Source: Kiritimatiellia bacterium
Lineage (GTDB): Bacteria > Verrucomicrobiota > Kiritimatiellia > RFP12 > UBA3636
DNA: 44,358 nt
Reading direction: 5' to 3'
Assembly: GCA_017424105.1 (NCBI GenBank)
Contig: JAFPBK010000010.1
Span: 1 to 44,358, forward strand
The translations under genes were made by a program, and so were the position numbers. This document shows positions 2 to 44,358 of the stretch, piece after piece (the stretch's first letter is position 1; each line of letters opens with the position of its first letter). The notes under the pieces were generated by a model. The model searched no databases. It was not told where the DNA came from and saw nothing but the letters and a program-made list of their open reading frames with translations.

Positions 2-2215
2 TTTCAGCTCGTTAACGATGCTGAAACTCCAGAAACATTGTGGACAGAGACTGGTTCATTTCTTGTTGAAGCATCAACAGTCGTATCTGATGCATTCTCT
101 GTAACTACAGAAAATTGCAAATTGTCAGTTTCTGCAGAAGTTTTGCAATGGGGTATAGGAGCAACTAAGGTAGAGCTTTTGATAGGTTCTGCCGATGATA
201 GCCTTGAGGTTGTACAAGCTTTTGACGGGCTAACAGAAATGCCAGAAAATGGTATGATTACTTTTGACTCCTTAATTTTGAATCCTGGTAGCTATAGCTG
301 TGCAATTAGAGTAACAACTACATATAATGATATTGTTTGGGTAAATGAAACACCAGTAAAAAGTATTTCCGTGTCAGACACAGCCACATATACTTGGATT
401 GGCAACTCTGGTAACTGGAGTGATAAATCAAAATGGAATACAACAGAGGATGGCTCTGCTGGCTATCCATCAGATGGCTGCTCAATTATAATTGGAGCAG
501 AGGATTGTGAAATTACTCTTGATTCTAGTGTTAAGCTATCTAATATCACAATATCTTCAGCTGGTAAGCACATATTCCGTAGTTCCTCATTACGTTCTGC
601 AAGAATAATCTCTGGTGATGTCACTTTGTCAGGAGAGGGTGGCGGAACACTTGTTCTTGATTCGGTTGTTTTTGAAAGTAAGATAAAAGATCTTGCAGGG
701 CTTAAGCAGCTTGTTCTTCAGCATGAGGCAAAGGCAGAACCTGCATCCTCAGAAGTAACAGACATTGTTCTAGTGTCTGGTGCAACACTTTATTGTGGTG
801 CTATTTATGGTAACAATGATGAGCTAAAGCTAGGTAAATTAAAGCTCGTCGGTGGACCAAACCTTGTCGCACATAGCCAGTACACACAAAAAGGTGTTCG
901 TTTTGCGTCATTTGAGGCAGTAAATGGTTCTGGTGTACCTGTTGTTGCAGTAAGGAGTGGGTATGTAGCATTTGATGATGTATCAGGAATTGAGATGGTA
1001 GGTGGTGACGCTTCTCTAGAAGACGGTACTTCAAAGATTCCTGTCCTCACAAATTTCCAAATTGGTGGAGGAAGAAATAGCGATCAAATGTACGGCAAAG
1101 GAGCTTGTACATTAGAAAATGGTGTAATAATGCGAATTCCTGAGTCAACAATGAAGGATACATTTGTTGATGCAGAAGAAACAGATAATGTCTGTATTAG
1201 TGCAAGCACAACGCTAGAAAATGATGTAACAGTTAATGCTTTAATTGTTAGCGGAGCAAGTCTTGACTTGGGTGGTCATACAATAACGGTTAAGTCTGGT
1301 GTTTTCCGTGAGGGAGATAAAAATCTTTGGAGTTGCGAGGTAAAAAATGGTGTTATTAAATTCGCTCGTCCAAATGTACTTAGTGATCAAACCAATAATG
1401 CAGATGTTCGCGTTAAAGTTGATTTTGCCACAGAAGGCAATGCTGATATGCTAAAGCCTATGCTTTCTCATGAATCACAAAACTTAGGTTGGGCACATAA
1501 ATCACATTATTCAAATTTTGTTGGCATTGTATCTCTAGAAATTGGTAGAGATTTTTACATTAGAAAAACGATGTCTCCAACTGCCGTTATTGAGTTAAAG
1601 GGAAATAAAGTAACCTCTGATACAACTTCTATAAAAGCTAATTATGGTGGTATCGCTGGTGTTGGTTATGTTGATTACAACTACAATGGTCAAAATAAAT
1701 GGAACTGTAATATTTGGCTAGGCGAGATGAGCGAGGAAGATTATCTCTCAGTAACTAATGACACAGTAACAGGTTCTGTAGTTGTTGGAAATAAAGGTAT
1801 CTTCTGCCCTGGTCTTGTTGAATATGATGGTGCTCGTAGAGGTGAAATTAAGCTTTCTTACCAGGCACAGGGTGACATCAAAATGCTTAATTCCTTTGAA
1901 ATTAGAGAGGGAGGAACATTTATTGCCTCAATTAATTCAGATGGAACATCAACCTTATTAAATGCAACAGAAACTGCTGTAGCAAATAAATTCCTAAAGG
2001 TGAACCTTGCTGGAAAGCTAGAGGTTGATAATTCTGGTGTGATTGAGACAGGTAAGTATTTCCCAATTATTACATATCACGAGGGAATGTTGGCGGGAGA
2101 ATTCTCAAGTGTATCAGATGGCTATAAGGTTCAATATAATGTTCCTCAGGCAGATGGCTCTTATGCTGTCACAGTAACAAAGCTTCCTCTAGGAACACTA
2201 CTTATTGTTCAATAA
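2..2215 (+). CDS. Large secreted/surface protein, 5'-truncated by the window edge. It has an autotransporter-associated beta-strand-repeat-like region and an unusual C-terminal tail, LPLGTLLIVQ.
   Basis: The frame is open from nt 2, and the track start at 38 is an internal TTG. The motif YTWIGNSGNWSDKSKWN..GYPSDG..IIIG..ITLDSSVKLSNITISS matches the style of PVC-group autotransporter-associated beta-strand repeats. The ORF is long and uninterrupted. Confidence 0.6.
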   Translation, partial: FQLVNDAETPETLWTETGSFLVEASTVVSDAFSVTTENCKLSVSAEVLQWGIGATKVELLIGSADDSLEVVQAFDGLTEMPENGMITFDSLILNPGSYSCAIRVTTTYNDIVWVNETPVKSISVSDTATYTWIGNSGNWSDKSKWNTTEDGSAGYPSDGCSIIIGAEDCEITLDSSVKLSNITISSAGKHIFRSSSLRSARIISGDVTLSGEGGGTLVLDSVVFESKIKDLAGLKQLVLQHEAKAEPASSEVTDIVLVSGATLYCGAIYGNNDELKLGKLKLVGGPNLVAHSQYTQKGVRFASFEAVNGSGVPVVAVRSGYVAFDDVSGIEMVGGDASLEDGTSKIPVLTNFQIGGGRNSDQMYGKGACTLENGVIMRIPESTMKDTFVDAEETDNVCISASTTLENDVTVNALIVSGASLDLGGHTITVKSGVFREGDKNLWSCEVKNGVIKFARPNVLSDQTNNADVRVKVDFATEGNADMLKPMLSHESQNLGWAHKSHYSNFVGIVSLEIGRDFYIRKTMSPTAVIELKGNKVTSDTTSIKANYGGIAGVGYVDYNYNGQNKWNCNIWLGEMSEEDYLSVTNDTVTGSVVVGNKGIFCPGLVEYDGARRGEIKLSYQAQGDIKMLNSFEIREGGTFIASINSDGTSTLLNATETAVANKFLKVNLAGKLEVDNSGVIETGKYFPIITYHEGMLAGEFSSVSDGYKVQYNVPQADGSYAVTVTKLPLGTLLIVQ

Positions 2216-2255: not shown

Positions 2256-5200
2256 ATGAAATCGTTTTATAGAAATTTGTCTGTAGCTTTTGTTCTAGTT
2301 AGTGGTGCAGCTCTTTCGGCAGAAATGCCAAAGAGCGACCCATTTATCCCTTACAATGAGATTCCAAGCTCCGAGCTTCTTCCTAAGGGTAAGGGCTTCT
2401 CCATTGCAAAGGATGGCTCTCTTCTTGTTGATGGTAAGCCTAGATATTTGCCAGCAGTGTTGTGGTATGGTGATACACAGTGGGGAGTAAACAATGCAAA
2501 GGAGAATTTCGGTCCATTAGAGTGGCTATATAATCGTATGCCAGATTATGAAGCAGCACAGCGCCTTGGTGTGGATGCAGGTGGCTTCTATGCACCTCTA
2601 AATTGGATGAAGCGCTATTATCGTCCTTGGACAAGAGGTGATGTTTGGGCAAAGCCAGATCCTCTTTATGGCATTACTATCGGTAATGGACTATCAATGT
2701 ATGTTGATATCACAGCTTCAGAGTGGGCTCATGGTTCAATTTGGCATGCTGACATACCTGTAAATCCAGATAGTAAGGTGAAGCCAGAGCCATGCAAAAA
2801 GCAAGGTGCCAATGGTAGCATATGTAATCATGCAGAATGTGGTGCAAAGCTTGGTGCTCCAGGACGCTTGTCTAGTGCAGCTTGGACACAAGGCTCACAG
2901 CATTGGGTGCCTTGGAGTATTGTGCATCCAGAGGGACGTAGTATTTGGAAGCATATGTGGGAAGGAGCATGTATTGATTCCTACAATTGGGCTAAGGCAG
3001 TAGGTGCTCGCCCTTGGTGCTATGAGCTAATGAATGAACCTGCTTGCTGGGATGAGTCTGAATATACAAAGAAGGCTTTCGCAGCTGCAATGAAGAAAAA
3101 ATATGGCTCAATTGAAAAGCTAAATGCTGCTTGGACTAAATCTGAATTTGGTACAGAAAAACGTTATGCATCTTTTGATGAGGTTGCAGCAGCTTATGGC
3201 AAAAATGATAATCCTACAGCATTTTTAGTAGAGTACACAAAGTTTATGGAGAAGGCTTTTGCTTCGCTTCTAACAGAAGGTGCAAAAATTGTTCACACAA
3301 AGGTAGATTCAGAGGCTTTAGCAACCTTCCAGCCTACAACTATTCGTACTCGTGGAATTGATTTGTATACAGCCTATAAAAACATGGATGTTGTTTGCTC
3401 TCATACAGGTGGTCGTGGCATCATGGAAGCACATATGCTTCGAGGCCTAGCAGATGGTAAGCCAATTGTTGACTCAGAAATGTATATTGGTTGTAGTGAA
3501 AATTCAATACGAAATTCATATCTAGATCAGTTCCAGCGTGGCTACAATATTTCATATGCATTTAAGTGGAATCGTCTACAAAAGTCATCATATAATTTCT
3601 TAAATCTAAATAATGTTCAGCCAGAGGCTCTTCGTGGAATTCGTGAGGCAAAGCTTGATGCACTAGATGTTGCTGAGCTTTTTGCTCCACGTGATAGAGG
3701 AGTGAAGCGTGAGGTTGCTGTCTTATTCTCCTCATCAACAGAGCGTCTATCACAATGCGCTGGTCACCAATCATATCGTTTGTTTGATCAAGCAATTGTA
3801 GGACTTGATTTTGCACAGCTTTTGCCAGATGTAATTTGGGAGGATCAAATTGTTGAAGATGGTGCAACAGGACGTTTAGGTCGCTACAAGGTACTTGTTG
3901 TAGCAGGAGTAGATGCAGTTCGTCCAGGAGTCAATAAAGCAGTAAAGGCTTGGGTAGAACGAGGTGGTGTTCTAGTGCTTGTTGGCGAAACAATGGGCTT
4001 AAACGAGTATGGTGCAGCAAATAGCGAGTCATTTGTTGATATTGAACTTGGTAAGCGCATTGAGAGTGAGGTCTCAGAGGTAACAATAAACAATAAAAAG
4101 CTTCAGGCTTCAGCATGGAGAGAGGCTCAAGCTTCTGCAACCTGGAAGACGCTCGCCACAATAGGTGATAAGCCTGCTTTCTTTGAGAAAAATTATGGCA
4201 AAGGAAAGGTTGTTTTTGCTTCTGCAAAGATGTCTGGCGGGTCAATTGGTACATTGGTAGCTAGCTACGGAGCTGCAGTTAATGTTACACCGAGCTCTTT
4301 AGTAACTGATGCATTGAGCTCAAGCACTGAACCAATTCAAGGTATTGAAATATCCCCAGCAAAGCGTGGAGATTTGGAGGGTTGGATTATTTCTCCTCGC
4401 ACAATGGGTGGCAGAGTAATTCGCTTTAAGCCAGCTTCTGTAGCGAAGCCTGGGGATGCCTTAATTCGCGTTTGGAATCGTCCAGATCCAAATATTAAAG
4501 AAGGCTATGCACCATTTGTTGCATTTAGACAAGTGATAGAGCCAGCAGCTGATGGCTCATATGTAATTGACTTAACAGAGGGTGGTACTCAAATCTTTGT
4601 TCGCGGAAATCTTGAATTACTAAAGAAGCGCTTTGGTGATGCAAATTCTCGTTGGTTAGCCCCTATGACAGCTGATCAAGCAATTGCAGCAGGTAAGGAG
4701 CGCATCGAAGCAGAAAAGGCAAGACGTGAAGCACTAAAGCCAGCATTTACAGTAAATCCAGATAAAATACATCAGCTTGATTTACGAAAGGTAGTGAACC
4801 GTAGGTTCGTAGATAAGGTTGCTCGTGATGGAAGAGATGGCTGGACAGACCAAGGTGCTCAGCAGTCACTTATGGATACTCCTTGGGGTATAACAATGTG
4901 TAATGGTGTGCCAATGGACTTTATTCGTTATGACCAGAATGGCTTCCGTGATTGCCTAGTTATGAAGTCAACACGCATTGGAGAAGCACCTGCTGATGAA
5001 ATGCCTTACCCAGCAAAGGTAGAGGGAATTCGTGTAGACCAAAAGGCAGGTAATATTTATTTCCTTCATGCTATTGCATGGGGTGTTATGAATAGGGTTG
5101 AAACTGCATTTACATATGTCATCAATTATGGCGACGGAACAAAAATTGAGTTACCAGTACGAAACTTCCATGAGGTATGGGATTGGGGTTATATTGCAAC

Positions 5201-5879
5201 AACAGATGACATGACAAAGAGCAGCTGCTTTAAGGGCTGGGCTAATGGCTCCAATAAGGGTCTATACCTATGGCGTTGGACAAATCCTCATCCTGAAAAG
5301 CAGATTTCTTCAATAGATATTGTTTCAGCATGTGGTTCACAAATTCCACTTATTGCTGCAATCTCTGTTGAAGAGCCAGATACAGCAGTAAAGGTTGATG
5401 GTGCACCTCATACGCTTTTTAGCCTTGGTGGCTCAGCAGGAGTAAAACCATTTGTAACAAATGGTATATGGAAGGTTGTGCTTGAGGAAAATGCAGGCTC
5501 TTGGTGTTGTGCAAACGCAGATATTCGTCCTGGCATTCGTTTAGATAGCGCTAAGCCATTTAAAAACCTTGTTTTTGAGGTAAATCGTCTACCTGACGTA
5601 TGGGGTGAATACCAAGATCATGCAACACCTCAATTCCGCGTAAATGGACGTGGAGCAGATGGAAAACTACGCTTCGGCCATTGGCGTGTGGCACGTTATG
5701 GAGATGGCTCGCATTTCTACCGTACAGACACTGATCCAGAAACCTGGCAGACTGTTTATATCAGTATGGATGGCTTTGTTGGAGGCGATTGGACGCAAAT
5801 TATTTCCTTTGCACTTCAATTCCAGCAGATGCCAACAAAGCACTCAGGCTTAGAATTTAGAAATATCCGCTTTGAGTAA
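2256..5879 (+). CDS. Secreted clan GH-A glycoside hydrolase, GH42-like (beta-galactosidase family), with a C-terminal extension of about 450 aa of unknown function.
   Basis: Signal peptide MKSFYRNLSVAFVLVSGAALSA. TIM-barrel acid/base signature WCYELMNEPACW followed by KKKYGSIEKLNAAW. A GATase-like trimerisation-type segment YKVLVVAGVD...GGVLVLVGE. Confidence 0.55.
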   Translation: MKSFYRNLSVAFVLVSGAALSAEMPKSDPFIPYNEIPSSELLPKGKGFSIAKDGSLLVDGKPRYLPAVLWYGDTQWGVNNAKENFGPLEWLYNRMPDYEAAQRLGVDAGGFYAPLNWMKRYYRPWTRGDVWAKPDPLYGITIGNGLSMYVDITASEWAHGSIWHADIPVNPDSKVKPEPCKKQGANGSICNHAECGAKLGAPGRLSSAAWTQGSQHWVPWSIVHPEGRSIWKHMWEGACIDSYNWAKAVGARPWCYELMNEPACWDESEYTKKAFAAAMKKKYGSIEKLNAAWTKSEFGTEKRYASFDEVAAAYGKNDNPTAFLVEYTKFMEKAFASLLTEGAKIVHTKVDSEALATFQPTTIRTRGIDLYTAYKNMDVVCSHTGGRGIMEAHMLRGLADGKPIVDSEMYIGCSENSIRNSYLDQFQRGYNISYAFKWNRLQKSSYNFLNLNNVQPEALRGIREAKLDALDVAELFAPRDRGVKREVAVLFSSSTERLSQCAGHQSYRLFDQAIVGLDFAQLLPDVIWEDQIVEDGATGRLGRYKVLVVAGVDAVRPGVNKAVKAWVERGGVLVLVGETMGLNEYGAANSESFVDIELGKRIESEVSEVTINNKKLQASAWREAQASATWKTLATIGDKPAFFEKNYGKGKVVFASAKMSGGSIGTLVASYGAAVNVTPSSLVTDALSSSTEPIQGIEISPAKRGDLEGWIISPRTMGGRVIRFKPASVAKPGDALIRVWNRPDPNIKEGYAPFVAFRQVIEPAADGSYVIDLTEGGTQIFVRGNLELLKKRFGDANSRWLAPMTADQAIAAGKERIEAEKARREALKPAFTVNPDKIHQLDLRKVVNRRFVDKVARDGRDGWTDQGAQQSLMDTPWGITMCNGVPMDFIRYDQNGFRDCLVMKSTRIGEAPADEMPYPAKVEGIRVDQKAGNIYFLHAIAWGVMNRVETAFTYVINYGDGTKIELPVRNFHEVWDWGYIATTDDMTKSSCFKGWANGSNKGLYLWRWTNPHPEKQISSIDIVSACGSQIPLIAAISVEEPDTAVKVDGAPHTLFSLGGSAGVKPFVTNGIWKVVLEENAGSWCCANADIRPGIRLDSAKPFKNLVFEVNRLPDVWGEYQDHATPQFRVNGRGADGKLRFGHWRVARYGDGSHFYRTDTDPETWQTVYISMDGFVGGDWTQIISFALQFQQMPTKHSGLEFRNIRFE

Positions 5880-5974: not shown

Positions 5975-6080
5975 GTTTGTGGTTAGGTGCTGTGTGTGCG
6001 TGGTGTGCATGATTCGTTATATCGTAGCATACCAGGCTCTGCCCTGGTATGAGCACTAGGATAATTTCGCAGGATTAACC
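5975..6080. repeat. Intergenic repeat element, copy A (about 106 nt, GT-rich 5' part, internal hairpin, ends CAGGATTAAC).
   Basis: Aligns at roughly 75-80% identity over its length with 23596-23700. The hairpin is 6028-6036 / 6043-6051 (CATACCAGG..CCTGGTATG). Confidence 0.7.
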
Positions 6081-6249
6081 TATTGAACTATATTTTTAAT
6101 TTTCCTATCCAGTTTCTGAATAAGTTAATTTAATTCTCTAATTTTTAAGAAAATGAATCTGAAGTATAGCAATACATAATTTTTTTTGCTACAATAGTTC
6201 CATCGTGAGTGTGAATTTTTGTTTCTTAACTTTAATCAGAGAATAAATT

Positions 6250-23986: not shown

Positions 23987-24607
23987 TTATTCCGCTAGAT
24001 AAATTACCTCATATTGAGGCTCTTCATCAGCTGGTTCAAAGACTGATTCGTCTGGCGTTGCACAACCTGTGCAGCCTACTAGAATAGATGCTGCAAAGGC
24101 TATGCAAATGAGCTTTCCAGAACCTAGTAATTTATTGTAGAGACCTCCCAATGCACGTACTGCATTATAATAGATTCTTGATACTAGAGAAGCACCCTTT
24201 TGCTTGAAGGAATTTGTTTGTTTTTTAGACTCCTGATAGAGCTTTAATCCGAAAACGTTATCACCTATTTTTCGGAGTTTGTCCCAGTCATAACCGAGGG
24301 CTATGAAGCTTGGGTCTGAAGCCATGTCGTTGAGGTGCTCGTACCACACATCGTGAGGAATGTAACCGCAGGCCATGTCAATAATGAATTTGTCAGGAGC
24401 TTTGGTAGCACCATCAATGCAATCTGCTTCTTTTTTGACATAGAATTGTTTGTTTTTGATATAGAAGTCATCGCAGTCAAAGTCTGGCATAGGTATTTTA
24501 AATGTACCAACAAAGTAATCAGATTTTAGGATGATTTTGTGGTCAGAATCCTCTTTTAGAGCTTTCTTTATATTATATATAATAGGTATAAGGGAATTTG
24601 TGTTCAT
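23987..24607 (-). CDS. Prophage accessory (moron) protein, DUF1353-like, with a C-terminal hydrophobic, lipobox-like segment.
   Basis: First ATG at 24607 (the track TTG is at 24628). ACGYIPHDVWYEH resembles the HD..Y motif of DUF1353. The C-terminus is LICIAFAASILVGCTGC. The gene is flanked by its own non-coding region and a terminator. Confidence 0.45.
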   Translation of the reverse strand: MNTNSLIPIIYNIKKALKEDSDHKIILKSDYFVGTFKIPMPDFDCDDFYIKNKQFYVKKEADCIDGATKAPDKFIIDMACGYIPHDVWYEHLNDMASDPSFIALGYDWDKLRKIGDNVFGLKLYQESKKQTNSFKQKGASLVSRIYYNAVRALGGLYNKLLGSGKLICIAFAASILVGCTGCATPDESVFEPADEEPQYEVIYLAE

Positions 24608-24649
24608 TTTTCGTTGACTTTCATACAAAATTTATGGTTAAATATTTGT

Positions 24650-24789
24650 GCTGGATGAGATTTGAGTAGCGTTATCGTCCATCCAGGTGGCTAGAGGCTA
24701 CACTACTAGTCGCCCCCTGCGTGTAATATGTGGGGCCCATACACTAATGTGAGATGGGGGGGGCTTCCGTCAGGAAGCCCGTTTTTTTT
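24650..24789 (+). ncRNA. Candidate prophage sRNA of about 140 nt (unknown family).
   Basis: Promoter: TTGACT (24614-19), an 18-nt spacer, then TGgTTAAAT. Several stems: 24651-57/24680-86, 24687-94/24706-13, CCCAT/ATGGG. Canonical terminator: GGGCTTCC-GTCA-GGAAGCCC plus T8 (24761-24789). No plausible ORF on either strand. Confidence 0.4.
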
Positions 24790-25486
24790 ATGTATTGATT
24801 CCGAAATGTCGTCTTACATAAGAAGCATCTGCTTTTAGGACACTATTGACTATCCCCGTTTTAGAGTCAATAATTATGTAAATACGTTTGCCATTCATGA
24901 TTTCTTGTCTTGTTTGATAAAGTATTGTCTGGTCTCTATGTGGTTGAATGTTTTTGAATGTAGGTTGCTTTATCAAAGCTAAATAAATTATGTTTTTCCT
25001 TTTCCCCTCTAATGGGTGCTTAACCTCTATTTTTGTTTTTAGAATATTGGTAAAATAACACTTGATACCACAAAAATTCTCTTCAAAGCCTTTCTCTAGA
25101 GCCTCTTCAATAGATACATTCATATCCATAATTACTCGGTCAGCAGTATAATGATCATTAGACGATTTATACTCTTCTAAAGCCCTTGCATAATGCTCTT
25201 CTTTTGAGATTCGTATCTCTTGAGAATGTTCTGGTTCTTTTTTCTCTATAGGTTTTAATCCTTCTGGAGGAGGACCACTATATCCACATTCATTACATTT
25301 TTTGCCATTGTAAAACCTTCCGCATTGACACTTGTAATAAGGGGTGTTCTTATTTGCTAATATTTGCTCGGGAACATATACACGCAGCAATAATCTTAGC
25401 ATGCGTTTCTTTTCTGCTATAGAACAGTCCTCTTTAAGTATGAGTTTTAGGTGTTTATAAGCAAAATAATGAGTTATTGCCTTCAT
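24788..25486 (-). CDS. Hypothetical zinc-ribbon protein (AT-rich accessory gene).
   Basis: The ATG at 25486 overlaps the upstream stop (TAATG). The ribbon is CQCGRFYNGKKCNECG. The C-terminal beta-rich segment is GKRIYIIIDSKTGIVNSVL. GC is visibly lower than in the neighbouring genes. Confidence 0.55.
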   Translation of the reverse strand: MKAITHYFAYKHLKLILKEDCSIAEKKRMLRLLLRVYVPEQILANKNTPYYKCQCGRFYNGKKCNECGYSGPPPEGLKPIEKKEPEHSQEIRISKEEHYARALEEYKSSNDHYTADRVIMDMNVSIEEALEKGFEENFCGIKCYFTNILKTKIEVKHPLEGKRKNIIYLALIKQPTFKNIQPHRDQTILYQTRQEIMNGKRIYIIIDSKTGIVNSVLKADASYVRRHFGINT

Positions 25487-25980
25487 TATAGAGCCTTTTC
25501 TTGGGATATTACATTTGTCCGCCATTTGCCAGACTTTGAAATTATAAGGAAGCGGAAGGCAACAGCCTTGTTTATAGCAGCGGCATCCCAGCCATGGTAA
25601 CCAGTTTCAATATTGTGGAAATCGCGTGTGGTTCTCGTTGTGCTTATCCAGTCGAATTTACCACCAAGCCAGCGGCCGTCAATCTTGCAAAACAAACATG
25701 CTATTGTTTCGCTTGCGTTATGAGCTCCATTCGCACCTAAATTTTCACATCCACCTTTAATCCACGAATAGGATAAACCATTAGATTTGACAGATAAGTC
25801 GGCTATTTCTACTTCGTTTAGATATGTTGCTCCTTCTCCATGGAACCCACCATAAACCCATTCCAACTCGTTGTATGCTTCTTCATCAGAAATTACTCGC
25901 TTATTTGAAGGAAGAGCTTCTTCTAGTTTGTCTTTGATTTTGAAGAGCGATTTTATTGCGTTAATGAGTTTCTTTAGCAT
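25486..25980 (-). CDS. Hypothetical protein (position suggests a lysis or accessory role).
   Basis: A perfect SD, AAGGAGG, lies 6 nt before the ATG at 25980 (the track start 26004 has none). No recognisable motif. Confidence 0.55.
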   Translation of the reverse strand: MLKKLINAIKSLFKIKDKLEEALPSNKRVISDEEAYNELEWVYGGFHGEGATYLNEVEIADLSVKSNGLSYSWIKGGCENLGANGAHNASETIACLFCKIDGRWLGGKFDWISTTRTTRDFHNIETGYHGWDAAAINKAVAFRFLIISKSGKWRTNVISQEKAL

Positions 25981-34697: not shown

Positions 34698-35266
34698 TGT
34701 ATTGCTCCTAAAATTCTCTCTATCACTGCCAAATATCCCGCTTTTGCTGATTCTATGAGCTCTGCATCAGATGGCAGCAAACTTCTATCTTGTGGCAGGG
34801 TCACACGCTTTTTGAGGGCGTAGAGAGGTGTAAATGTGCCTCCGTGGTCTGTCGCAAGTATACTTTTTACCTTAAAAATATTCATTGTGCGTGCTACCTC
34901 GCTAGCTCTTCTGCCATAAGCCCAGGCGTGCAGAGGAATAGTTAGTGCTTGTGCTTGCTTTGGCTTAATTGTGACTGATCCAAATACACGCTTGAAGCCA
35001 GGACTTTCGATTGATACTCCGTAGGCGTCACCTAATTCAACCTTATGAACCGACGTAGCTGCCTTTTGGAGGTGCCCTGTTGGTGAAGATCCTAATGCAG
35101 AGGCTGTTTTATGGTGAGTTTGGCCTACACCACGAACATGAGCTCTAATATCTGCTGTTAAGCGAGTGGCAGCACCATCAAGTAAGGTCTTTTTGCCAGC
35201 TTCGCCTAAAACACCAAATAATTTAGCTAATTGAGGGCTAACCTCTACCTTCGCTTCTAATCTCAT
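34694..35266 (-). CDS. Virion morphogenesis / tail completion protein (Mu G-like).
   Basis: The size and ..KPKQAQALTIPLHAWAYGRRA.. resemble the Mu G / HK97 gp10-type family. The stop and start overlap by 4 nt. Confidence 0.4.
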   Translation of the reverse strand: MRLEAKVEVSPQLAKLFGVLGEAGKKTLLDGAATRLTADIRAHVRGVGQTHHKTASALGSSPTGHLQKAATSVHKVELGDAYGVSIESPGFKRVFGSVTIKPKQAQALTIPLHAWAYGRRASEVARTMNIFKVKSILATDHGGTFTPLYALKKRVTLPQDRSLLPSDAELIESAKAGYLAVIERILGAIQ

Positions 35267-36039
35267 CCTCTTAGCTCCTTCAGCAATGCACTTTCGAAGC
35301 CTTTGCCAAGCTTTTGCAGAGCATCTGCAATCTCTTGCTCTCCTGGAGAAAGAGTTGGTGCTTTAGGCTGCTTAACTGCTTCATCAGAGCCAAATAAACC
35401 GAGCTTTTGACAGTCTTCGCGACTTACAGGTGTCCAATTTAGACCAGAGCGGAAGGCGAACGGAGGATAAGGATTGTCCAAAGTGTCCTTGAAGCCACCT
35501 GCACCATCTCCCAAAGCTTTCCAGATAGGAGAATCCTTTAGTGCAGTCATCTGTGTCTTGGAAGCACCTTTCCAACCTACTGAATCACCTGCTGCCTTCC
35601 AGCGTGCAGGCCAATCGCTACGAGGCTTAACTCTTCCTTCATATCGCTCTAGTGTCCAGCCAGGATATTGTGCTAAATCTTCAGGTGTTTGACCTTTAAG
35701 TTGAGCAATTGAGTGAGCCATCTGCCTCTGAGTGTCAAGCACTAGGTCTAGTCTAGCTTTAGAAGCTAGATTAGTTAGTCCTGTCTCTTCCGACTGATAG
35801 CCAATGTTATCAAGCATCTTCTGGAGGTGCTTGCGTGCTGTTGCTTGGTCAATGATACCAGTAGCAACCTTGGTGCAAATCTCCTGAAGTTTCTTTAGGG
35901 AGGAAGCATTGTGTGTGGTTGCAGAAAAGAAAGCACGGCGGCGAATTTCAGCTGCGAGCTGCTCTTTAATTTCTGCACTGTTTAAGTGAGTCGGTAAAAT
36001 TACCTTACTTAGAATTGCTCTTGCTGTGTCTGTAGCCAT
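35263..36039 (-). CDS. MuF-like minor head protein.
   Basis: ASKARLDLVLDTQRQMAHSIAQ resembles the MuF/SPP1 gp7 core (R..TE...A). It lies within the head module. Confidence 0.4.
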   Translation of the reverse strand: MATDTARAILSKVILPTHLNSAEIKEQLAAEIRRRAFFSATTHNASSLKKLQEICTKVATGIIDQATARKHLQKMLDNIGYQSEETGLTNLASKARLDLVLDTQRQMAHSIAQLKGQTPEDLAQYPGWTLERYEGRVKPRSDWPARWKAAGDSVGWKGASKTQMTALKDSPIWKALGDGAGGFKDTLDNPYPPFAFRSGLNWTPVSREDCQKLGLFGSDEAVKQPKAPTLSPGEQEIADALQKLGKGFESALLKELRG

Positions 36040-36489: not shown

Positions 36490-37377
36490 CTAAGCAGATG
36501 TAACTAGGCGAACGCACTTGTCAGCCTGAACAAGCTCGCAGCCCATAAGCACCTCAAGAGTAGCAAAGTTGTGGCCCTTAGCAGGTGCACCATGACGACG
36601 CATGCCTAGAACTAGACCAGAATTCTCGTCAACCATCTCGCCAATCTCTTCGTAGTTGGCCTTGCTGTTAACAGGAACTTTGCGAGAAGCAACAACGATT
36701 GCTGTCTCTGGGATTATTGCACCAATAGTGCCAGTTGGAAGCTGAGTGCCTTCCATTACAGACTTAAAGCCATACAAGCCATCAATCTTGCCATTCTTGA
36801 TTGCTTCAGCACCGCCATAGACATTAGAGTCTAGCAAAGCTAGAAGGTCTGCAAACTGGTTTGGAGCAAGCAATAGAACAGAATCAGCTGGATCAGCACC
36901 AACCTCTGCACACTTCTTACGAAGCTTTGCAATGTTTGCCTTGTTTACTGTGCCTAGAGAATATGTTGCAGAGATTGCTTCTGCTGTAATCTTCTGAGTA
37001 ACAAACTTCTCAATGCCACGAGCAAGCACCTTACCAGCAATCTTACCTGCATCTGCCCAGATGCCTGTAGTGTTGAACTTAGTAGCCTCCTCATCAGTGA
37101 AGGAGAATGTATGCTTCAAGTGTGTGTCAAACTTGATTGTTACCTGCTCCATAGTGCCATCTGTTGTCTCGTAGTCATTTGTGTCTACATTGAAAACAGA
37201 TGCTTCACCGCCCTTGAATACCTTAACGACCAATGCGTCGCCAATAGAGTTAACTGTCTCATCAGAGAAGTTGGTAGTGAATGCAGAAACACGAGCTAGA
37301 GCACGCTGTGCTCCGATGATTGCTTTACCTGCTGCATAAGAAATGCCAGGAATTTCGGCGATAGATGTGTCAGCCAT
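36490..37377 (-). CDS. Major capsid protein.
   Basis: 295-aa ORF directly after the protease/scaffold gene. The call rests on position and size. Confidence 0.6.
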   Translation of the reverse strand: MADTSIAEIPGISYAAGKAIIGAQRALARVSAFTTNFSDETVNSIGDALVVKVFKGGEASVFNVDTNDYETTDGTMEQVTIKFDTHLKHTFSFTDEEATKFNTTGIWADAGKIAGKVLARGIEKFVTQKITAEAISATYSLGTVNKANIAKLRKKCAEVGADPADSVLLLAPNQFADLLALLDSNVYGGAEAIKNGKIDGLYGFKSVMEGTQLPTGTIGAIIPETAIVVASRKVPVNSKANYEEIGEMVDENSGLVLGMRRHGAPAKGHNFATLEVLMGCELVQADKCVRLVTSA

Positions 37378-37403: not shown

Positions 37404-38315
37404 TTAGTGATTGAATGCTGCAGGGTTCTTTTCCATCTCAGCAACAATTGCATGAGCACCCTTGCCAGCGAGTGAATTTTTAATAGACATTACAGGCTTC
37501 TTAGCTGCAGCTGCATTGCATACTGGCTTAGCAGGCTCTGTAATTACTGGCTTAGCAGGAGCGGCGTTAACAACCGCTTTCTTGCAGTTAGCCAAAATAG
37601 CACGAGCAAGTGTTGGGTTAGCACGAAAAGCGTTCTTTAGCTCTTCACGATCCTCGACCATGTCCTCGTTCTCTGCAGCGAATGCTTCTGCTTCAGCCTC
37701 TGCCTCTTTTGCTTCAAAATCGGCAATGCGAGTCTGTAGCTCAGTCACTCCTGCAATAACATCCTCCTCAGTTGCCTCTGGAGCAAGACCGAGAAGTTCA
37801 ATTAGCTTAGTTAGCATAATTTTATTTTCCTCTTTGGCATTGTTGTTGTTAACTACCGTTTTCTGCGAGTTGCCAATCGCTCGCACTGGTAGGTTCGGAC
37901 GGTTTGTTAGTGCAACGGAGACGAGCCTTGTAGGACATCCATCGTTGTCAATAATCCAAACTGGTGAAACGTAGCGATATTCGCCATTGCTGACAAGCTT
38001 CGCTCCGTCCTCTGTAAATTCCATCTTGCCTCTGAGACCGACGCCTTCTTCATGAGCAAGCTGAGTAATCCAAGCCATAGCCTTAGTGCTGCCACCTTCC
38101 TCAGAGGTGTGGTCGCAATCAACAAGTACAGGATTGTCAAAGGCTGCCATCATATTCTCAATGGTTTTGACTGATACATCCTGGATAACTTTATTGCCTT
38201 CATCATCCCATTGAGGCCATTTCCCAATCGGAGCAAGGTGAATCCATAGTTCACTGCCTGCCTCCACGTTTTTGGGAAGGTTTAACTCAATATTTTTTGT
38301 TTTTCGTAAATTCAT
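37404..38315 (-). CDS. Mu gpI-type head maturation protease with a C-terminal scaffold region.
   Basis: The N-terminal half (WIHLAPIGKW...VDCDHTSEEGG...YRYVSPVW) resembles the Mu-like prophage I protein. The C-terminal half is Ala/Glu-rich coiled coil (EAKEAEAEAEAF). Confidence 0.65.
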   Translation of the reverse strand: MNLRKTKNIELNLPKNVEAGSELWIHLAPIGKWPQWDDEGNKVIQDVSVKTIENMMAAFDNPVLVDCDHTSEEGGSTKAMAWITQLAHEEGVGLRGKMEFTEDGAKLVSNGEYRYVSPVWIIDNDGCPTRLVSVALTNRPNLPVRAIGNSQKTVVNNNNAKEENKIMLTKLIELLGLAPEATEEDVIAGVTELQTRIADFEAKEAEAEAEAFAAENEDMVEDREELKNAFRANPTLARAILANCKKAVVNAAPAKPVITEPAKPVCNAAAAKKPVMSIKNSLAGKGAHAIVAEMEKNPAAFNH

Positions 38316-38535
38316 AGTTAATTTTTTGTTGACAAGTTGTTAATAAAAGTGGTACTTTGGTGTCGTTTTGAGAGCAACAGAGGTAGGACTACACAACTGA
38401 AAGCCCCTCAAGTAGATATGGTTGGGAAGTAGCGGACTGAATCTGCGGAGACAGCGTGAAATGTCTTAAGAACACCCCATGGCGCAACCCGCGAGGACTT
38501 GCTGTTTAACAGCAGGGTAGAAAATTTGCTCATAT

Positions 38536-40611
38536 TCACCTCTCTGAATTATACAAGGCGGTCTTCTTTCTGTAGAAGGCTGCCTGTTTTTCTTCCATCA
38601 AATAAGCAGAAATCACAGTAAGGTATTTGTCTTTACGTCCTAAAATTACAGCCTTATTGGAGTTTTTATCTAAAACAACTATGTTGCTATTCGTTGTGTC
38701 ATAATATTTTCCGTAAGCAAGAACCTTTGCTATGTTGTTATCTTGTAACATAATCTCGTGGTCAGTTCCTTGGTCCGTAATGTCTTGGCTTGAGTGTTTA
38801 ATTTTGTTTTTTTCATCCTCAATACGTTTTAATATGTGCTTATAGCCATAATTTTCATTGCCTTGGTCAAATTCGATATGTCCAAAAATCCAATTATCCA
38901 TAAAGTTTTTAGAATCTTTGCCTGCAAAGACATTTTCTAGTTCTGCTATTGCGTGGACTTCCTGTTTTTTGCGATATTCTATCTTTTCTTGTTTTGTTGT
39001 TGGTTTGCATCTGCAAGTCTCGGCAGACTTGGCTTTGCAATCGTTGTCGCCAAAGCTATTCTTCACACTCTTTTCGCCAAGAGTGTCAGCGACCTCATGT
39101 GCGATGTCTGCTTCAATCTCTGCAGCAAGACCATCTGCTTTAAAGCCTAATTCCTCTGGAGAAGCTTCAGCCATTGCCTTAGCTTTAGCTAAAAACTCCT
39201 CATCATCTGCTGCCAATAAGTCTTGAAGTGACTTGGCTGTTCCCTGCATATCTCGAGAGAAGCCCAAAATCGCGCTCTGGAGCGTTTTTTCACTATTGGC
39301 GAGTATTTTATCGTCTTGTTTCGGAAAATCGTTTTGCAACGGGTTCGCAACGGCTTCTCGCGTGTCTTCTTGAGAGTTCATCATCCCAAAACCACCCATT
39401 GCGGCATCTTTCTCCAGAATAAAGCCAGTTCTCTCCTCAAGTTGTCCCTTTTCGACTACGTATCCAGCAGTCTTTGCTTTAGCTGCTAAGTCAAAGACAT
39501 CTCCAGCAGATTGTTCCTCTTCATGTCCAAGCTCAAACTTAACTGCTACAGGCTTGCCAGGAAAGTGTAATCTCAAGAATGGAACAACAAGTGCTCTGTG
39601 GATAGCATCGCCAATAATCTCTGCATCACGTGCAACAATCTGCTGCCAAACATCCATCTGAGCGTTTCCTGCCAATGTACCAGCACCGCTTTCTGCCAAG
39701 CTAGTTAATGTGCCACCAGTTGCTAGAAGTACAATAAGCTTCTCTTGATGTTCAATAAATGCTGAAAATGGATCCGTTCCTCGTGCCTCAGTGCCATAGC
39801 TAACTTGCGAGCCTGCTGGCAAAGCACCTGAACGAGCTTCAGCAATAGCCACCGCTGCCTCCTGAAAAGCCTGGACCTCAGCAGGTGAAATGTTGTCTGG
39901 CATAGTGATAGTACAAGGAGGAATGCCATATCGCTCCAAGAATCGTCCCCAATCGCTCTCAGCTAGGTTGTGCCTTAGGAATATTGATAGTGCAGGATAG
40001 TCAATCGCTCTAGGACGCTCAACAGTTATAAGCTCGCATTTAGGTATTGCTGGCAAATCCCATGGCTCAAGAACTGAATCTGCTCCCTCATTCCAATGCC
40101 ATGTGCCTGTTTCGACATTGCGACAAAAATTCCAGCTATTTAGCTTGTCAATGTGGGCGACATAACCCTCCGCAGTCCATACAGGCAAACAATGGCTAAA
40201 GCCTCGGAAGAAAGCAAGCGATAAGTGCTCAATGGCTTCTGATAGGTTGTCAATCCCATCAATGAATCTCTCTACTGCGTTAATCTGTGCTTCTGCTGCT
40301 GCATCATTATGTCCGCGGCCCTTAACAATCTGCCAACCTAGAGAAGCTAGAGCAGATGCTCTACGCTCTACGCACGTAAGCAGCACAGGGTCAGCTCTCT
40401 CCACTTGGTCGTATAGATACTGCAAGCGTGCATAGTTACCTCTGCGTGCTGCATCATAGATGTTGCGTGCCTCAGTGATTGTGAGGCTTCGTAATGGGTT
40501 GGTATTCTCAAGCCAGGAATGCGAGCTAGTCTTTTTAGGTTGATTAACTCGTATAGTAGCAATCTGCTTATTTTGTACTTTGACAGTTCCTTTAGTAGTC
40601 TTAGTTGCCAT
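38536..40611 (-). CDS. Portal protein (DUF935 / Mu gp29-like) with an extra C-terminal domain of about 170 aa.
   Basis: Directly downstream of the large terminase. YDQVERADPVLLTCVERRASALASLGWQIV is a DUF935-style segment. 691 aa versus about 510 aa typical. The last 500 nt or so are AT-rich. Confidence 0.75.
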   Translation of the reverse strand: MATKTTKGTVKVQNKQIATIRVNQPKKTSSHSWLENTNPLRSLTITEARNIYDAARRGNYARLQYLYDQVERADPVLLTCVERRASALASLGWQIVKGRGHNDAAAEAQINAVERFIDGIDNLSEAIEHLSLAFFRGFSHCLPVWTAEGYVAHIDKLNSWNFCRNVETGTWHWNEGADSVLEPWDLPAIPKCELITVERPRAIDYPALSIFLRHNLAESDWGRFLERYGIPPCTITMPDNISPAEVQAFQEAAVAIAEARSGALPAGSQVSYGTEARGTDPFSAFIEHQEKLIVLLATGGTLTSLAESGAGTLAGNAQMDVWQQIVARDAEIIGDAIHRALVVPFLRLHFPGKPVAVKFELGHEEEQSAGDVFDLAAKAKTAGYVVEKGQLEERTGFILEKDAAMGGFGMMNSQEDTREAVANPLQNDFPKQDDKILANSEKTLQSAILGFSRDMQGTAKSLQDLLAADDEEFLAKAKAMAEASPEELGFKADGLAAEIEADIAHEVADTLGEKSVKNSFGDNDCKAKSAETCRCKPTTKQEKIEYRKKQEVHAIAELENVFAGKDSKNFMDNWIFGHIEFDQGNENYGYKHILKRIEDEKNKIKHSSQDITDQGTDHEIMLQDNNIAKVLAYGKYYDTTNSNIVVLDKNSNKAVILGRKDKYLTVISAYLMEEKQAAFYRKKTALYNSER

Positions 40612-40615
40612 TGTT

Positions 40616-41920
40616 TTACCTGCTTCTTCTAAAATAGTTCGTGTTCCGTTTTAACACAAACGGAGTGAAATAGTATCCTTTAGTCTCTGCTGCCTTGATG
40701 GCTAGAGCTAATGATGCACCTCGGTCGCTATGTCCATCTGCTGAACGTGGTGCAGAATAGCTTATGTTGCCACCTACACTTACAAGCTTCTGAATTGCGT
40801 GTAAGTCTTCCCTTAGATTGCGATCATTATTGGGTATCTGAATAGTACGCTCCTCGAACCTCTTACGCATTGCAGAATACATCTCGCCTTTTGCCTTATG
40901 CGAGAAATTGACCGCTTCAATTCTGCCACCATGACGCCTTTTTGCCTCTTCAGCAAACATCATGCCTAAGCCTGTGGCATCAATGCAGCACTTCTGCACG
41001 CCCTTTGCAGAGAGAATTCCAGACAAGACTTCCAGCTGTTCGTTGAATGGCATCTTGTGTAGCTCCTCCTTCTGAACTAGCACAAGCTTGTCTCCATGCT
41101 TTGCCAATACGGAGATTACCGACAAGTCATGGCTGCGACCAATATCCATTCCTACAAATTTAGGTGCATCTGTCTCTGCTACGCATATAGCAGACTCACA
41201 AGCTGCAATCATATCATAAGGAAGCAATACTCCAGATGAATCGATAAATTCACACATGTATTCCTGGAGCCAGATGTCAGAATCATCCACGCCAGCTCGT
41301 AGCTCTTCAACATTGACCTTTAAGCCTTGCTCAACCGCATCAAGAATCGTAAGCTTGTGCTTACTGTAGTTCTCATTCTTGCCCCAGAGGTCTGCGAACT
41401 TATTACCAAGTCCCTTTGGAGTGGACACAATGCGAAGCTTTTTTTCGCCGTTGATAGGATTGGTAATAGATGGGTAGATCGCCGCCCAAATGTCCCAAGG
41501 ACGTTCGTGGATTGCAAACTCGTCAAGGATAAGATTAGCAGAATAACCACGTGCTGTGTCTGGGTTCGCAGGGATTGCCACTATGCGGCTGCCATTATTG
41601 AATCTAATTTCTGCCTTGCTTTTCATAGCGTCAGAACTATGCAGTGTTTCCTCGTAGGCGTCTACCACAAGCTGGAATGCCTCGCTCCACATCTTAGCTT
41701 TCTGCATCCACTCCAACGCCTGGCGTTCACCAGCAGACAATACCACCCAAAGCTGCCCTGGCCTCAATAGACAGTCACGGACAGCCTCGCAAGCAGTGCT
41801 GAAGCTCTTACCAGTCTGGCGAGACCACATGCCAATCTTGAATCTGGCATCGTCTGCGACCCACTTCCTCTGGTAAGGTAGTAGCACTTTATTAAGTATT
41901 GGTTCGTTGGATTTAAACAT
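40616..41920 (-). CDS. Terminase large subunit.
   Basis: Walker A-like MWSRQTGKSFS, Walker B LILDEF, and a C-terminal RNase H-like nuclease region with Asp residues (VGMDIG, CIDATG). Confidence 0.8.
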   Translation of the reverse strand: MFKSNEPILNKVLLPYQRKWVADDARFKIGMWSRQTGKSFSTACEAVRDCLLRPGQLWVVLSAGERQALEWMQKAKMWSEAFQLVVDAYEETLHSSDAMKSKAEIRFNNGSRIVAIPANPDTARGYSANLILDEFAIHERPWDIWAAIYPSITNPINGEKKLRIVSTPKGLGNKFADLWGKNENYSKHKLTILDAVEQGLKVNVEELRAGVDDSDIWLQEYMCEFIDSSGVLLPYDMIAACESAICVAETDAPKFVGMDIGRSHDLSVISVLAKHGDKLVLVQKEELHKMPFNEQLEVLSGILSAKGVQKCCIDATGLGMMFAEEAKRRHGGRIEAVNFSHKAKGEMYSAMRKRFEERTIQIPNNDRNLREDLHAIQKLVSVGGNISYSAPRSADGHSDRGASLALAIKAAETKGYYFTPFVLKRNTNYFRRSR

Positions 41921-43171: not shown

Positions 43172-43556
43172 TGCTGCAACCCTTCTTTCTCTCTCGGTAG
43201 AGTTTCTTTTGAATTGGTGCGTTTATTCTGCATGGTGGAGTTTCTGCACGCAATCTCGCTGCCTCTGCGCTGTAACCGATTGACACTAGAATTTTCTCAA
43301 TTTCTGCATCTGGCACATCAGGGATAGGCATGTGTGGATTCCGCCAAGCTAACTCGCTCAATTGCTCTGAATTACCACCAAGAGCATCTGCGAAATCCCA
43401 TAGGACAATCCCAGCTACGCGTTGAGCGAGGTTCGCTCGCGTACCGCAGAACTTCCAAATGCGATTGATCCACACGTCCTCGGTGCGCTTTAACAATGTA
43501 GGATTCGTGCGAGTTTTGAGCACAGCAGCGGATGATGTTTGTTTTTTACGATTCAT
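43164..43556 (-). CDS. First late-operon protein, function unknown.
   Basis: The ORF starts immediately after a terminator T-tract. No recognisable motif. Confidence 0.45.
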   Translation of the reverse strand: MNRKKQTSSAAVLKTRTNPTLLKRTEDVWINRIWKFCGTRANLAQRVAGIVLWDFADALGGNSEQLSELAWRNPHMPIPDVPDAEIEKILVSIGYSAEAARLRAETPPCRINAPIQKKLYRERKKGCSNG

Positions 43557-43557
43557 G

Positions 43558-43593
43558 AAAAAGAAAAAGGAGCCTGAGACTCGCTCAGGCTCC
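43558..43593 (-). terminator. Rho-independent terminator abutting the late operon.
   Basis: On the - strand: GGAGCCTGAG-CGAGT-CTCAGGCTCC followed by TTTTTCTTTTTC, then the ATG of 43556. Confidence 0.75.
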
Positions 43594-43812
43594 GTAACAA
43601 TTTAACAAAATTTAATAGGAGTAGAGATAATGAAGTCTCCATTTGCTTCCTAGATTAGCACATTTGCTAAAAAACAAAATAAAGCAATAAAGAGACTGAA
43701 TACTTTTGTTACATTTTTTTCATTTTCAAGGTTTAATATTCTTGCAAAATCTCACGTGAGATTTTTAACGAGTGTTGATTTGCAAGGGTTTATATGTGTG
43801 AGATTGGTGTTT

Positions 43813-43826
43813 AAGCAACTAGTTGC
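43813..43826. promoter_or_regulatory. Operator-like palindrome, copy 1 (AAGCAACTAGTTGC).
   Basis: Perfect 12-bp palindrome GCAACTAGTTGC, 4 nt past the repressor stop. The identical 14-mer occurs at 44185-44198. Confidence 0.55.
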
Positions 43827-43829
43827 CTA

Positions 43830-44123
43830 TTATTCATCAGGTGGGAGTAGTAAATGACGTTTAATTAGTTTAATGTCTAATTCCATGTCATCTAGTCGCT
43901 GTAGGATTGTTTGTAATGTTTTTTTATCATCACTTATATCATTACTTTCTATATGTGGTAAGCCATTCTTTATAATGTTGTCTAACTGTGCACTTACTTT
44001 GTCTGTAATTGGTTTAGCACCAGAGTTTAACATATAGATGTAGTTACTGCTTACTCCAAGACATTTAGCCAGTTCTAATTTAGTGATTCCATACGTCTGT
44101 ATTATTTTATCTATTCTTTTCAT
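43830..44123 (-). CDS. XRE/CI-type phage repressor.
   Basis: HTH YGITKLELAKCLGVSSNYIYMLNSGAKPI. Divergent from a Cro-like gene. TATAAT lies 6 nt before the ATG, which implies a near-leaderless transcript. Confidence 0.7.
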   Translation of the reverse strand: MKRIDKIIQTYGITKLELAKCLGVSSNYIYMLNSGAKPITDKVSAQLDNIIKNGLPHIESNDISDDKKTLQTILQRLDDMELDIKLIKRHLLLPPDE

Positions 44124-44143
44124 AAATTTATTATAATTTATTA

Positions 44144-44177
44144 TTGACTTGTTATGATTAGTTATGATAACTTATCA
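44144..44177 (+). promoter_or_regulatory. Early rightward promoter with overlapping operator repeats.
   Basis: TTGACT (44144-49), an 18-nt spacer, then TGaTAACTT. GTTATGAT occurs twice at 10-bp phasing (44151, 44161). The palindrome TGATAAcTTATCA is at 44165-44177. Confidence 0.45.
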
Positions 44178-44184
44178 GCAAATA

Positions 44185-44198
44185 AAGCAACTAGTTGC
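44185..44198. promoter_or_regulatory. Operator-like palindrome, copy 2 (AAGCAACTAGTTGC).
   Basis: Identical 14-mer to 43813-43826, located between the early promoter and the Cro-like ATG. Confidence 0.55.
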
Positions 44199-44234
44199 TA
44201 TTGGTAATAATAACAAATTCAGGAGAAAAAGTAA

Positions 44235-44358
44235 ATGGCAGTAAAAGCAATAGGTGTAGCACAAGCTGCAAAAGCCTGTGGATTTACTAAAAGCCACGTG
44301 TCAAGAGTCGCTACAGGTCAGCGAAAGTCGTCAAACACTTTGATTAAGCGGGCAATAG
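44235..44358 (+). CDS. Cro/Ner-like HTH protein, 3'-truncated by the window edge.
   Basis: SD AGGAGA lies 9 nt upstream. MAVKAIGVAQAAKACGFTKSHVSRVATGQRKS is an HTH-like sequence. The frame is open to the window end. Confidence 0.55.
   Translation, partial: MAVKAIGVAQAAKACGFTKSHVSRVATGQRKSSNTLIKRAI

Follow-up and report, generated by a model that had tools for sequence, protein, structure and literature searches.

A polymorphic Mu-type portal protein with a divergent PBECR1-like predicted endoribonuclease domain and a convergent candidate small-RNA gene in a Kiritimatiellia contig

The subject of this analysis is a gene for a Mu-type phage portal protein, together with the segment between it and the following gene, on a contig of a Kiritimatiellia bacterium (JAFPBK010000010.1, positions 1 to 44,358; the whole of this stretch of 44,358 nucleotides is referred to as the window). 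The portal gene is an open reading frame (ORF) of 691 codons on the minus strand (38536-40611), and its assignment in a first-pass annotation of the same DNA was confirmed by a match to the Pfam profile Portal_Mu (E 1.2e-38). Three parts can be distinguished in the encoded protein. The Portal_Mu (DUF935, PF06074) core comprises residues 66-396 (39424-40416, minus strand), covers profile positions 3-335 of 336 and scores 133.8 bits against a gathering cut-off of 23.9. It is followed by an Ala/Glu-rich tail or linker of residues 397-535 (39007-39423, minus strand), which is equivalent to the C-terminal tail of portals that lack a further domain and which terminates in the segment CKAKSAETCRC. 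The C-terminal domain of residues 536-691 (38539-39006, minus strand) was delimited and classified by a family alignment, by profile-profile comparison with hhalign and by modelling with AlphaFold2 (AF2). The motifs that the first-pass annotation had quoted from this region and the Cys-containing segment before it (C525, C533 and C535) are present as written. With regard to the neighbouring genes, the order is terminase, portal, Mu-like protease and capsid. The gene for the large terminase lies directly upstream of the portal gene (40616-41920, minus strand; PHROG terminase large subunit, E 7e-47), and the next gene downstream codes for a Mu-like prohead protease/scaffold protein of the gpI type (37404-38315, minus strand; Pfam Mu-like_Pro, E 2.8e-33), which is a likely processor of the portal tail and is followed by the gene for the major head protein (36490-37377).

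Scans of the C-terminal domain against Pfam and PHROG gave no direct match, and a word-indexed protein search with the domain alone matched only the shared linker. An exhaustive phmmer search of 1.8 billion representative proteins detected 13 relatives of the domain, nearly all of which are C-termini of Mu-type portals or fragments thereof and which are referred to here as family X; with a profile of this family, the word-indexed search returned just eight short proteins. The family alignment consists of 21 members, and its numbering plus 535 gives the numbering of the portal. Ten of its columns are invariant (G29, D31, F35, M36, Q48, H57, I58, H83, M86 and L87), and position 133, as read by eye, is Ser or Thr in 21/21 members and is followed by A-Y. 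Candidate catalytic residues of the window portal are H592, corresponding to H57 (38836-38838, minus strand), and S668, corresponding to S133 (38608-38610, minus strand); the further invariant polar residues are D566, Q583 and H618 in portal numbering. When family X was compared by hhalign to the tails of 14 portals bearing the Pfam domain PBECR1 (PF18809), a probability of 97.2% and an E value of 3.8e-11 were obtained, and the alignment paired H57 with the His of the GLSH-I motif and S133-A-Y with T-x-Y. The two groups are also bridged by BLAST, between P0039 of family X and the PBECR1-bearing P0120 (E 8e-9).

The AF2 model calculated with the family alignment has a pLDDT of 88.3 and a pTM of 0.83. 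In this model, a long linker helix is followed by a beta-hairpin, the His-bearing helix, a 17-residue insert of low confidence, two helices and four strands, the predicted elements including helices 54-66 and 91-98 and strands 100-103, 109-112, 118-125 and 128-136. H57 lies in helix 54-66 and position 133 in strand 128-136, which is where PBECR domains have their His and Ser/Thr, and the 17-residue insert of the window copy sits between both conserved His. The predicted topology agrees with the 'extra strands + pre-alpha + alpha + beta1-4' arrangement of PBECR/colicin-like BECR ribonucleases (RNases) (bioRxiv 10.64898/2026.08.28.747851). In Foldseek searches with the model, the top matches in the PDB were nearly all RelE, ParE, YoeB or HigB, and four phage proteins were found in BFVD at E<=5e-4. 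Judged from the profile comparison and the model, the domain is a divergent PBECR1-like predicted endoribonuclease (endoRNase) of the metal-independent, colicin-D-like BECR type. Of the 'BECR/EndoU-type nuclease' that the first-pass annotation had proposed, the PBECR/BECR RNase-type assignment is thus retained, and the 'EndoU-type' label proved unsupported or overstated. As no experimental test of any PBECR domain was found in the literature searched, 'RNase' is a prediction for the whole PBECR class.

Compared to the PBECR domains of Iyer et al. 2017, family X is likewise fused to the C-terminus of a Mu-type portal and encoded among virion genes, it has the same core of a helix and four strands with a His in the core helix and a Ser/Thr in the last strand, and its profile matches that of PBECR1-bearing portal tails. 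It differs from them in that it lies outside all Pfam PBECR models (PBECR1-5) as a small family of its own (13 representatives), with the extra invariant residues H83, D31 and Q48 and, in the window copy, the 17-residue insert.

Among the 120 best relatives of the portal, the length after the portal core is bimodal, with 44-182 residues in 60 proteins and 265-361 residues in the other 60, and we therefore regard the C-terminal extension as real. This bears out the modular and variable extension that the first-pass annotation had envisaged. The same annotation had considered a portal-borne domain of this kind unusual; PBECR-portal fusions were, however, already stated by Iyer et al. 2017 (PMC5512222), and such fusions are common, occurring in about half of the 120 relatives and in many IMG/VR loci. 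The domains at the ends of the long tails fall into at least eight clusters, which are unrelated or distantly related to each other and include Pfam PBECR1, PBECR2 and PBECR3. At least five types of C-terminal domain are found on portals that are 79-98% identical to the window portal, among them PBECR1 (P0005, P0007 and P0010), PBECR3 (P0008) and others (P0003 and P0004). A conserved crown or decoration domain of the portal is ruled out, as half of the relatives lack the domain and near-identical portals carry others in its place.

The exchange can be followed at the level of both protein and DNA. The window portal and P0001 share 95% identity up to ...ETCRC. In the closest metagenomic relative, L001, the DNA is about 97% identical as far as the codons for ...AETCRC and then cannot be aligned until the start codon of the protease gene. 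Comparison of the window with loci L001-L004 by blastn delimited an exchangeable cassette (38317-39055) that has no homology to these otherwise 88-95% identical relatives. Its left breakpoint coincides with the start codon of the protease gene (38316), or lies at 38363 in L004, and its right breakpoint is found at 39008 (L001 and L003) or at 39056 (L002 and L004). The junctions are sharp and located after ...KNS or ...ETCRC, and the spacer up to the protease gene moves with the domain. The locus shows features of a polymorphic toxin (Zhang et al. 2012; Jamet et al. 2017), i.e. a conserved N-terminal carrier, unrelated C-terminal domains in close relatives and a sharp junction between them. These alignments show that the portal C-terminus is a polymorphic, horizontally exchanged module. 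A blastn search against the INPHARED phages gave no match, and single-protein searches for loci of close relatives in GTDB genomes and IMG/VR found none.

The segment CKAKSAETCRC (39007-39036, residues 525-535) has its three Cys where some relatives (the tails of P0120 and L016) have a CxxC...CxxC zinc ribbon preceding the PBECR domain. The segment may be what is left of such a ribbon after degeneration, and it coincides with one of the two recombination junctions.

The first-pass annotation had also pointed to the AT-richness of the DNA encoding the C-terminus and had taken it as a sign of a recent graft. The dip exists, with a GC content of 34.2% in the last 156 codons (38539-39006) vs. 46.8% in the remaining gene, and in a windowed GC analysis of the phage part, so low a GC content was reached by only 3.5% of the windows of 468 nt, which are confined to just three regions. 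Its reading as a sign of a graft did not hold. Because GC at the third codon position barely differs (0.346 in the domain vs. 0.381), the dip mostly reflects a protein rich in Lys, Asn, Ile and Glu and not a foreign codon usage, and low GC was rejected as proof of foreign origin on this ground. The same dip is seen in the variable domains of all relatives, including those of phages with 66-72% GC. A recent graft is not proven by composition alone; it is the comparative data that prove it. The other two AT-rich stretches of the phage part (GC <= 0.36 in 468-nt windows), at 24198-25581 at the end of the tail region and at 43445-44357 upstream of the terminase region, could represent additional mosaic modules.

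The spacer between the portal and the protease genes comprises 220 nt (38316-38535). A 41-aa ORF downstream of the portal gene had been put forward in the first-pass annotation as a possible partner of the domain. This ORF (38408-38533, minus strand; 43 aa when read from a GTG start) follows the portal stop codon and has a good ribosome-binding site, and neither version of it has a Pfam or PHROG match. A stretch homologous to it is conserved as DNA behind the family-X domains of L005-L007, whose portals are about 38% identical. Since the frame in which this stretch is read in L005 differs from that in L006/L007, the ORF was judged to be non-coding, and it was rejected as an immunity protein; the conservation is that of a structured RNA encoded on the other strand. 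Likewise, no conserved ORF that could code for a cognate immunity protein was found in the spacers (165-250 nt) of eight close relatives.

Convergent with the portal gene lies a candidate small-RNA gene of about 230 nt (38329-38595, plus strand), which is composed of promoter-like boxes, a covarying core and a terminator. The boxes are a -35 element TTGACA (38329-38334) and a -10 element TACTTT (38353-38358) at a spacing of N18. The structured core (38372-38484) has four helices and a UNCG tetraloop, and the predicted intrinsic terminator (38556-38595) is antisense to the portal gene within the last 19 portal codons. Equivalent promoter-like boxes are present in other loci, where the terminator follows 70-100 nt downstream of the core. 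The positions of both elements are conserved across loci, with the terminator located inside or abutting the 3' end of the portal gene. The terminator finder used was crude and missed the terminators of the window, L006 and L007, and the terminator counts are therefore lower bounds.

The structure of the small RNA was derived from the same nine sequences on which it was tested. In these, 96.7% of the cells in the helices are paired and 9 of the 17 pairs show double (compensatory) changes, a level of covariation that was matched by 0/500 shuffles and far exceeds that of slid controls. The occurrence of UNCG tetraloops (UUCG, UACG and UGCG) and of G-U pairs fixes the strand of the RNA as that opposite to the portal gene. 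A covariance model matched the spacer RNA with 83 bits, and Rfam contains no family for the spacer RNA of the window and eight related loci. The fold of the single sequence is not unusually stable (z -1.26). A pattern search detected 13 occurrences of this RNA element, referred to as type A. A relaxed 17-nt DNA pattern hit 35 loci in IMG/VR, all of which the covariance model identified as chance matches, and the type-A covariance model had no match among 77 IMG/VR Mu-like portal loci.

Three further loci deserve mention in this context. In L014, a type-A element (1779-1892, plus strand; 92 bits) lies between a gene for a PD-(D/E)XK protein (PDDEXK_4) and a 215-aa ORF, with no visible phage context. 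In L016, a Kiritimatiellia metagenome-assembled genome (JAZQOS010000025.1, 4157-6153), a stand-alone ORF of 218 aa (4374-5030) corresponds to a portal tail, a zinc ribbon and a PBECR1-like domain without the portal core. It adjoins host genes for a kinase and a signal peptidase, is flanked by a type-B-like RNA (4157-4253, minus strand) and a type-A RNA (6044-6153, minus strand), and possibly represents an orphan cassette or the remains of a prophage. In L066, which belongs to another lineage and has a different C-terminal domain on its portal, the spacer (about 5316-5494) contains a sense ORF of about 59 aa with a ribosome-binding site. This ORF is a possible protein immunity gene, and the partners may therefore differ between domain types.

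We assign a probability of about 0.65 to the reading that the gene encodes a Mu-like portal with a polymorphic effector module, which would consist of a helical tail of about 140 aa and a divergent PBECR1-like BECR endoRNase domain of about 155 aa and would be delivered by the virion. That the domain is attached to a virion protein is in keeping with a delivered effector, and for PBECR domains fused to MuF and portal domains, packaging and injection have been predicted (Iyer et al. 2017, PMC5512222). The portal C-terminus (crown) is turned toward the capsid interior in JBD30. The location of the domain at the 'DNA exit channel', as assumed in the first-pass annotation, can thus not be upheld, since the C-terminus is on the crown side, inside the capsid, and virions of Mu lack the equivalent tail of gp29. 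In the virion map of Mu, the 124 C-terminal residues of gp29 are not seen, which, according to the authors, supports cleavage by protease I (PMC11915804). Mu gp29 belongs to the same portal family, and a homologue of protease I is encoded next to the portal gene of the window. Residues 397-535 of the window portal, i.e. the tail after the Pfam core, are the counterpart of the roughly 124 residues missing from Mu virions. Unlike the window portal, Mu gp29 has no enzymatic domain on its tail, and for the window phage we infer the cleavage by analogy.

According to this delivery model, twelve copies of the domain would be built into the procapsid with the portal, their C-termini pointing inward. 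The prohead protease encoded immediately downstream would cut the tail, as proposed for Mu gp29, and free the domains inside the head, from where they would exit with the DNA via the portal and the tail channel and, at an early stage of infection, cleave RNA that belongs to the host or is related to defence. The fast swapping of modules would then mirror an arms race against targets or inhibitors in the host. Several points weigh against the model. Neither the window domain nor any of the 21 family members matches a Pfam PBECR model, even at an E value of 10, no Foldseek match in the PDB is significant (best E 0.096, TM 0.2-0.4), and a sequence-profile search of the PDB yielded no solved relative. 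Furthermore, a folded domain of about 18 kDa would need to be unfolded for its passage through the portal, and if the tail were left uncleaved, the domains would stay tethered in the capsid and could be active only in the producing cell.

The arrangement resembles that of the MuF polymorphic toxins (Jamet et al. 2017, BMC Biol), in which a conserved N-terminus of a head protein also carries variable toxin C-termini that are swapped among close relatives, and which are likewise encoded in the DNA-packaging module beside the portal gene. The carrier is different, being the portal (12 copies) here and not MuF (1-2 copies in SPP1). In addition, a small immunity ORF is located behind 89% of the MuF toxins (Jamet et al. 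2017, BMC Biol), whereas here there is no conserved protein ORF and the spacer holds the candidate convergent structured RNA.

This RNA leads to an alternative, or extended, explanation of the locus as a cassette of a toxin and an RNA antidote or regulator. The convergent small RNA, expressed from its own promoter (e.g. in a lysogen), would neutralise or repress the cognate RNase domain. Possible mechanisms are antisense base pairing at the 3' end of the portal mRNA and binding to the protein, and the outcome could be self-protection or immunity to superinfecting phages with the same module. We consider this explanation rather unlikely, with a number of observations in its favour. Besides the covarying core, the strand assignment and the positional conservation of promoter-like boxes and terminators, the RNA is associated with the domain: in 10 of the 12 independent type-A occurrences with enough upstream sequence, it lies directly behind a family-X domain. 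The eight close relatives share the layout but have a different RNA body, the type of which follows the type of the domain, and there are two variants of the promoter whose distribution is independent of the body. L001 and L003 are more alike in the spacer than in the domain DNA (93% vs. 68% identity). Across 86 loci, the gap between the portal gene and the next gene has a median of 120 nt behind domain-bearing portals (n=40), compared to a median of -4 nt, i.e. an overlap, behind domain-less ones (n=46), and antisense promoter-like sites were found in 13/25 non-redundant long-tailed loci, compared to 4/34 short-tailed ones and 0/25 on the sense strand. However, adjacency by itself would cause the spacer to hitch-hike with the domain, the single-sequence fold is not exceptional, and the structure was tested on the sequences from which it was derived. 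Moreover, type-A RNA is not confined to the vicinity of family X (L014 and L016), and some spacers of other lineages have a small sense ORF instead (L066). There are type I toxin-antitoxin loci with convergent antisense RNAs overlapping at the 3' ends, such as txpA/RatA and bsrG/SR4. The locus is similar to these in that the candidate RNA is convergent, has a promoter-like site of its own and overlaps the 3' end of the toxin ORF with its terminator region. However, the known type I antitoxin RNAs target mRNAs of small membrane peptides and not RNase domains; the 'toxin' here is a soluble predicted RNase domain of 156 aa within a structural protein of 691 aa rather than a small hydrophobic peptide, and the overlap amounts to only about 60 nt. 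The more general proposal that portal RNase domains may travel as two-gene cassettes with a cognate convergent structured small RNA as an RNA 'immunity' or control factor is likewise considered rather unlikely. Such an RNA could neutralise the BECR RNase, repress its mRNA or shield lysogens from the effector of superinfecting relatives.

Two other explanations concern the domain itself. It is improbable in our view that it has no catalytic role and is attached to the portal as an RNA- or DNA-binding or structural element, e.g. for packaging or as a plug in the capsid interior. An inactive PBECR domain was inferred by Iyer et al. at the C-terminus of Mu gp30 (MuF), and the low-confidence insert between the conserved His of the window copy points in the same direction. 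Against this, the His and Ser/Thr signature as well as D31, Q48 and H83 are invariant in the family, and a structural part would neither be swapped for unrelated domains in portals of 92-98% identity nor be missing from half of the relatives. Very improbable is an artefactual fusion, in which the domain would be a separate gene joined to the portal gene by an assembly or sequencing error. The portal of L001 is indeed called as two proteins of 454 aa and 239 aa, owing to a 1-nt difference in an A-run, GATAAAATAC vs. GATAAATAC (about 2460-2532 in L001 and about 39240-39310 in the window). Yet an in-frame fusion is present in 60 of the 120 relatives from many samples, and the identical 691-aa protein (P0002) occurs on three contigs. 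As the split in L001 occurs within the conserved tail, at a distance of 80 codons before the variable domain, the indel of L001 is the anomaly; it is probably an assembly error or a genuine frameshift and not a domain boundary.

With regard to the rest of the window, all phage genes are located on the minus strand between about 24 kb and its end, and the first 23.5 kb or so have the opposite orientation and resemble flanking host DNA. Between 1-23500 and 23987-44358, large plus-strand ORFs give way to a phage late operon on the minus strand, and the GC content shifts from 39% to 43%. One end of the prophage is probably located near 23.5-24 kb, with the early region beyond the window, and the host of this Mu-like prophage is probably a member of the Kiritimatiellia. 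The ORF at 35263-36039 (minus strand, 258 aa) is positioned after the capsid gene and not immediately after the portal gene. It had been named as a separate MuF-like gene in the first-pass annotation, a designation which we could not substantiate, as the ORF has only a weak PHROG match to 'minor head protein and DNA pilot' (E 0.005) and no match to Pfam MuF.

The portal-PBECR architecture as such is already in the literature, and the domain described here is a new, divergent representative of it. The new results are that cassette exchange on portals is demonstrated directly, that genes for immunity proteins are lacking behind these portals and that a convergent gene for a candidate small RNA is associated with them. 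Among the effectors predicted in phage virion proteins, PBECR domains are some of the most frequent, and none of them has been characterised. The locus, together with the natural series of near-isogenic portals carrying different domains, represents a ready-made experimental system for the questions that it opens, namely whether portal tails deliver enzymes to the host, which RNA is cut and what drives the fast turnover of the modules. The linkage between domain and small RNA and the total absence of a spacer behind domain-less portals suggest a second component that had not been looked for previously. If the RNA indeed acts as an antidote or regulator, this would be a new type of toxin-immunity logic in phage biology, in which an RNA takes the place that immunity proteins have in polymorphic toxin systems.

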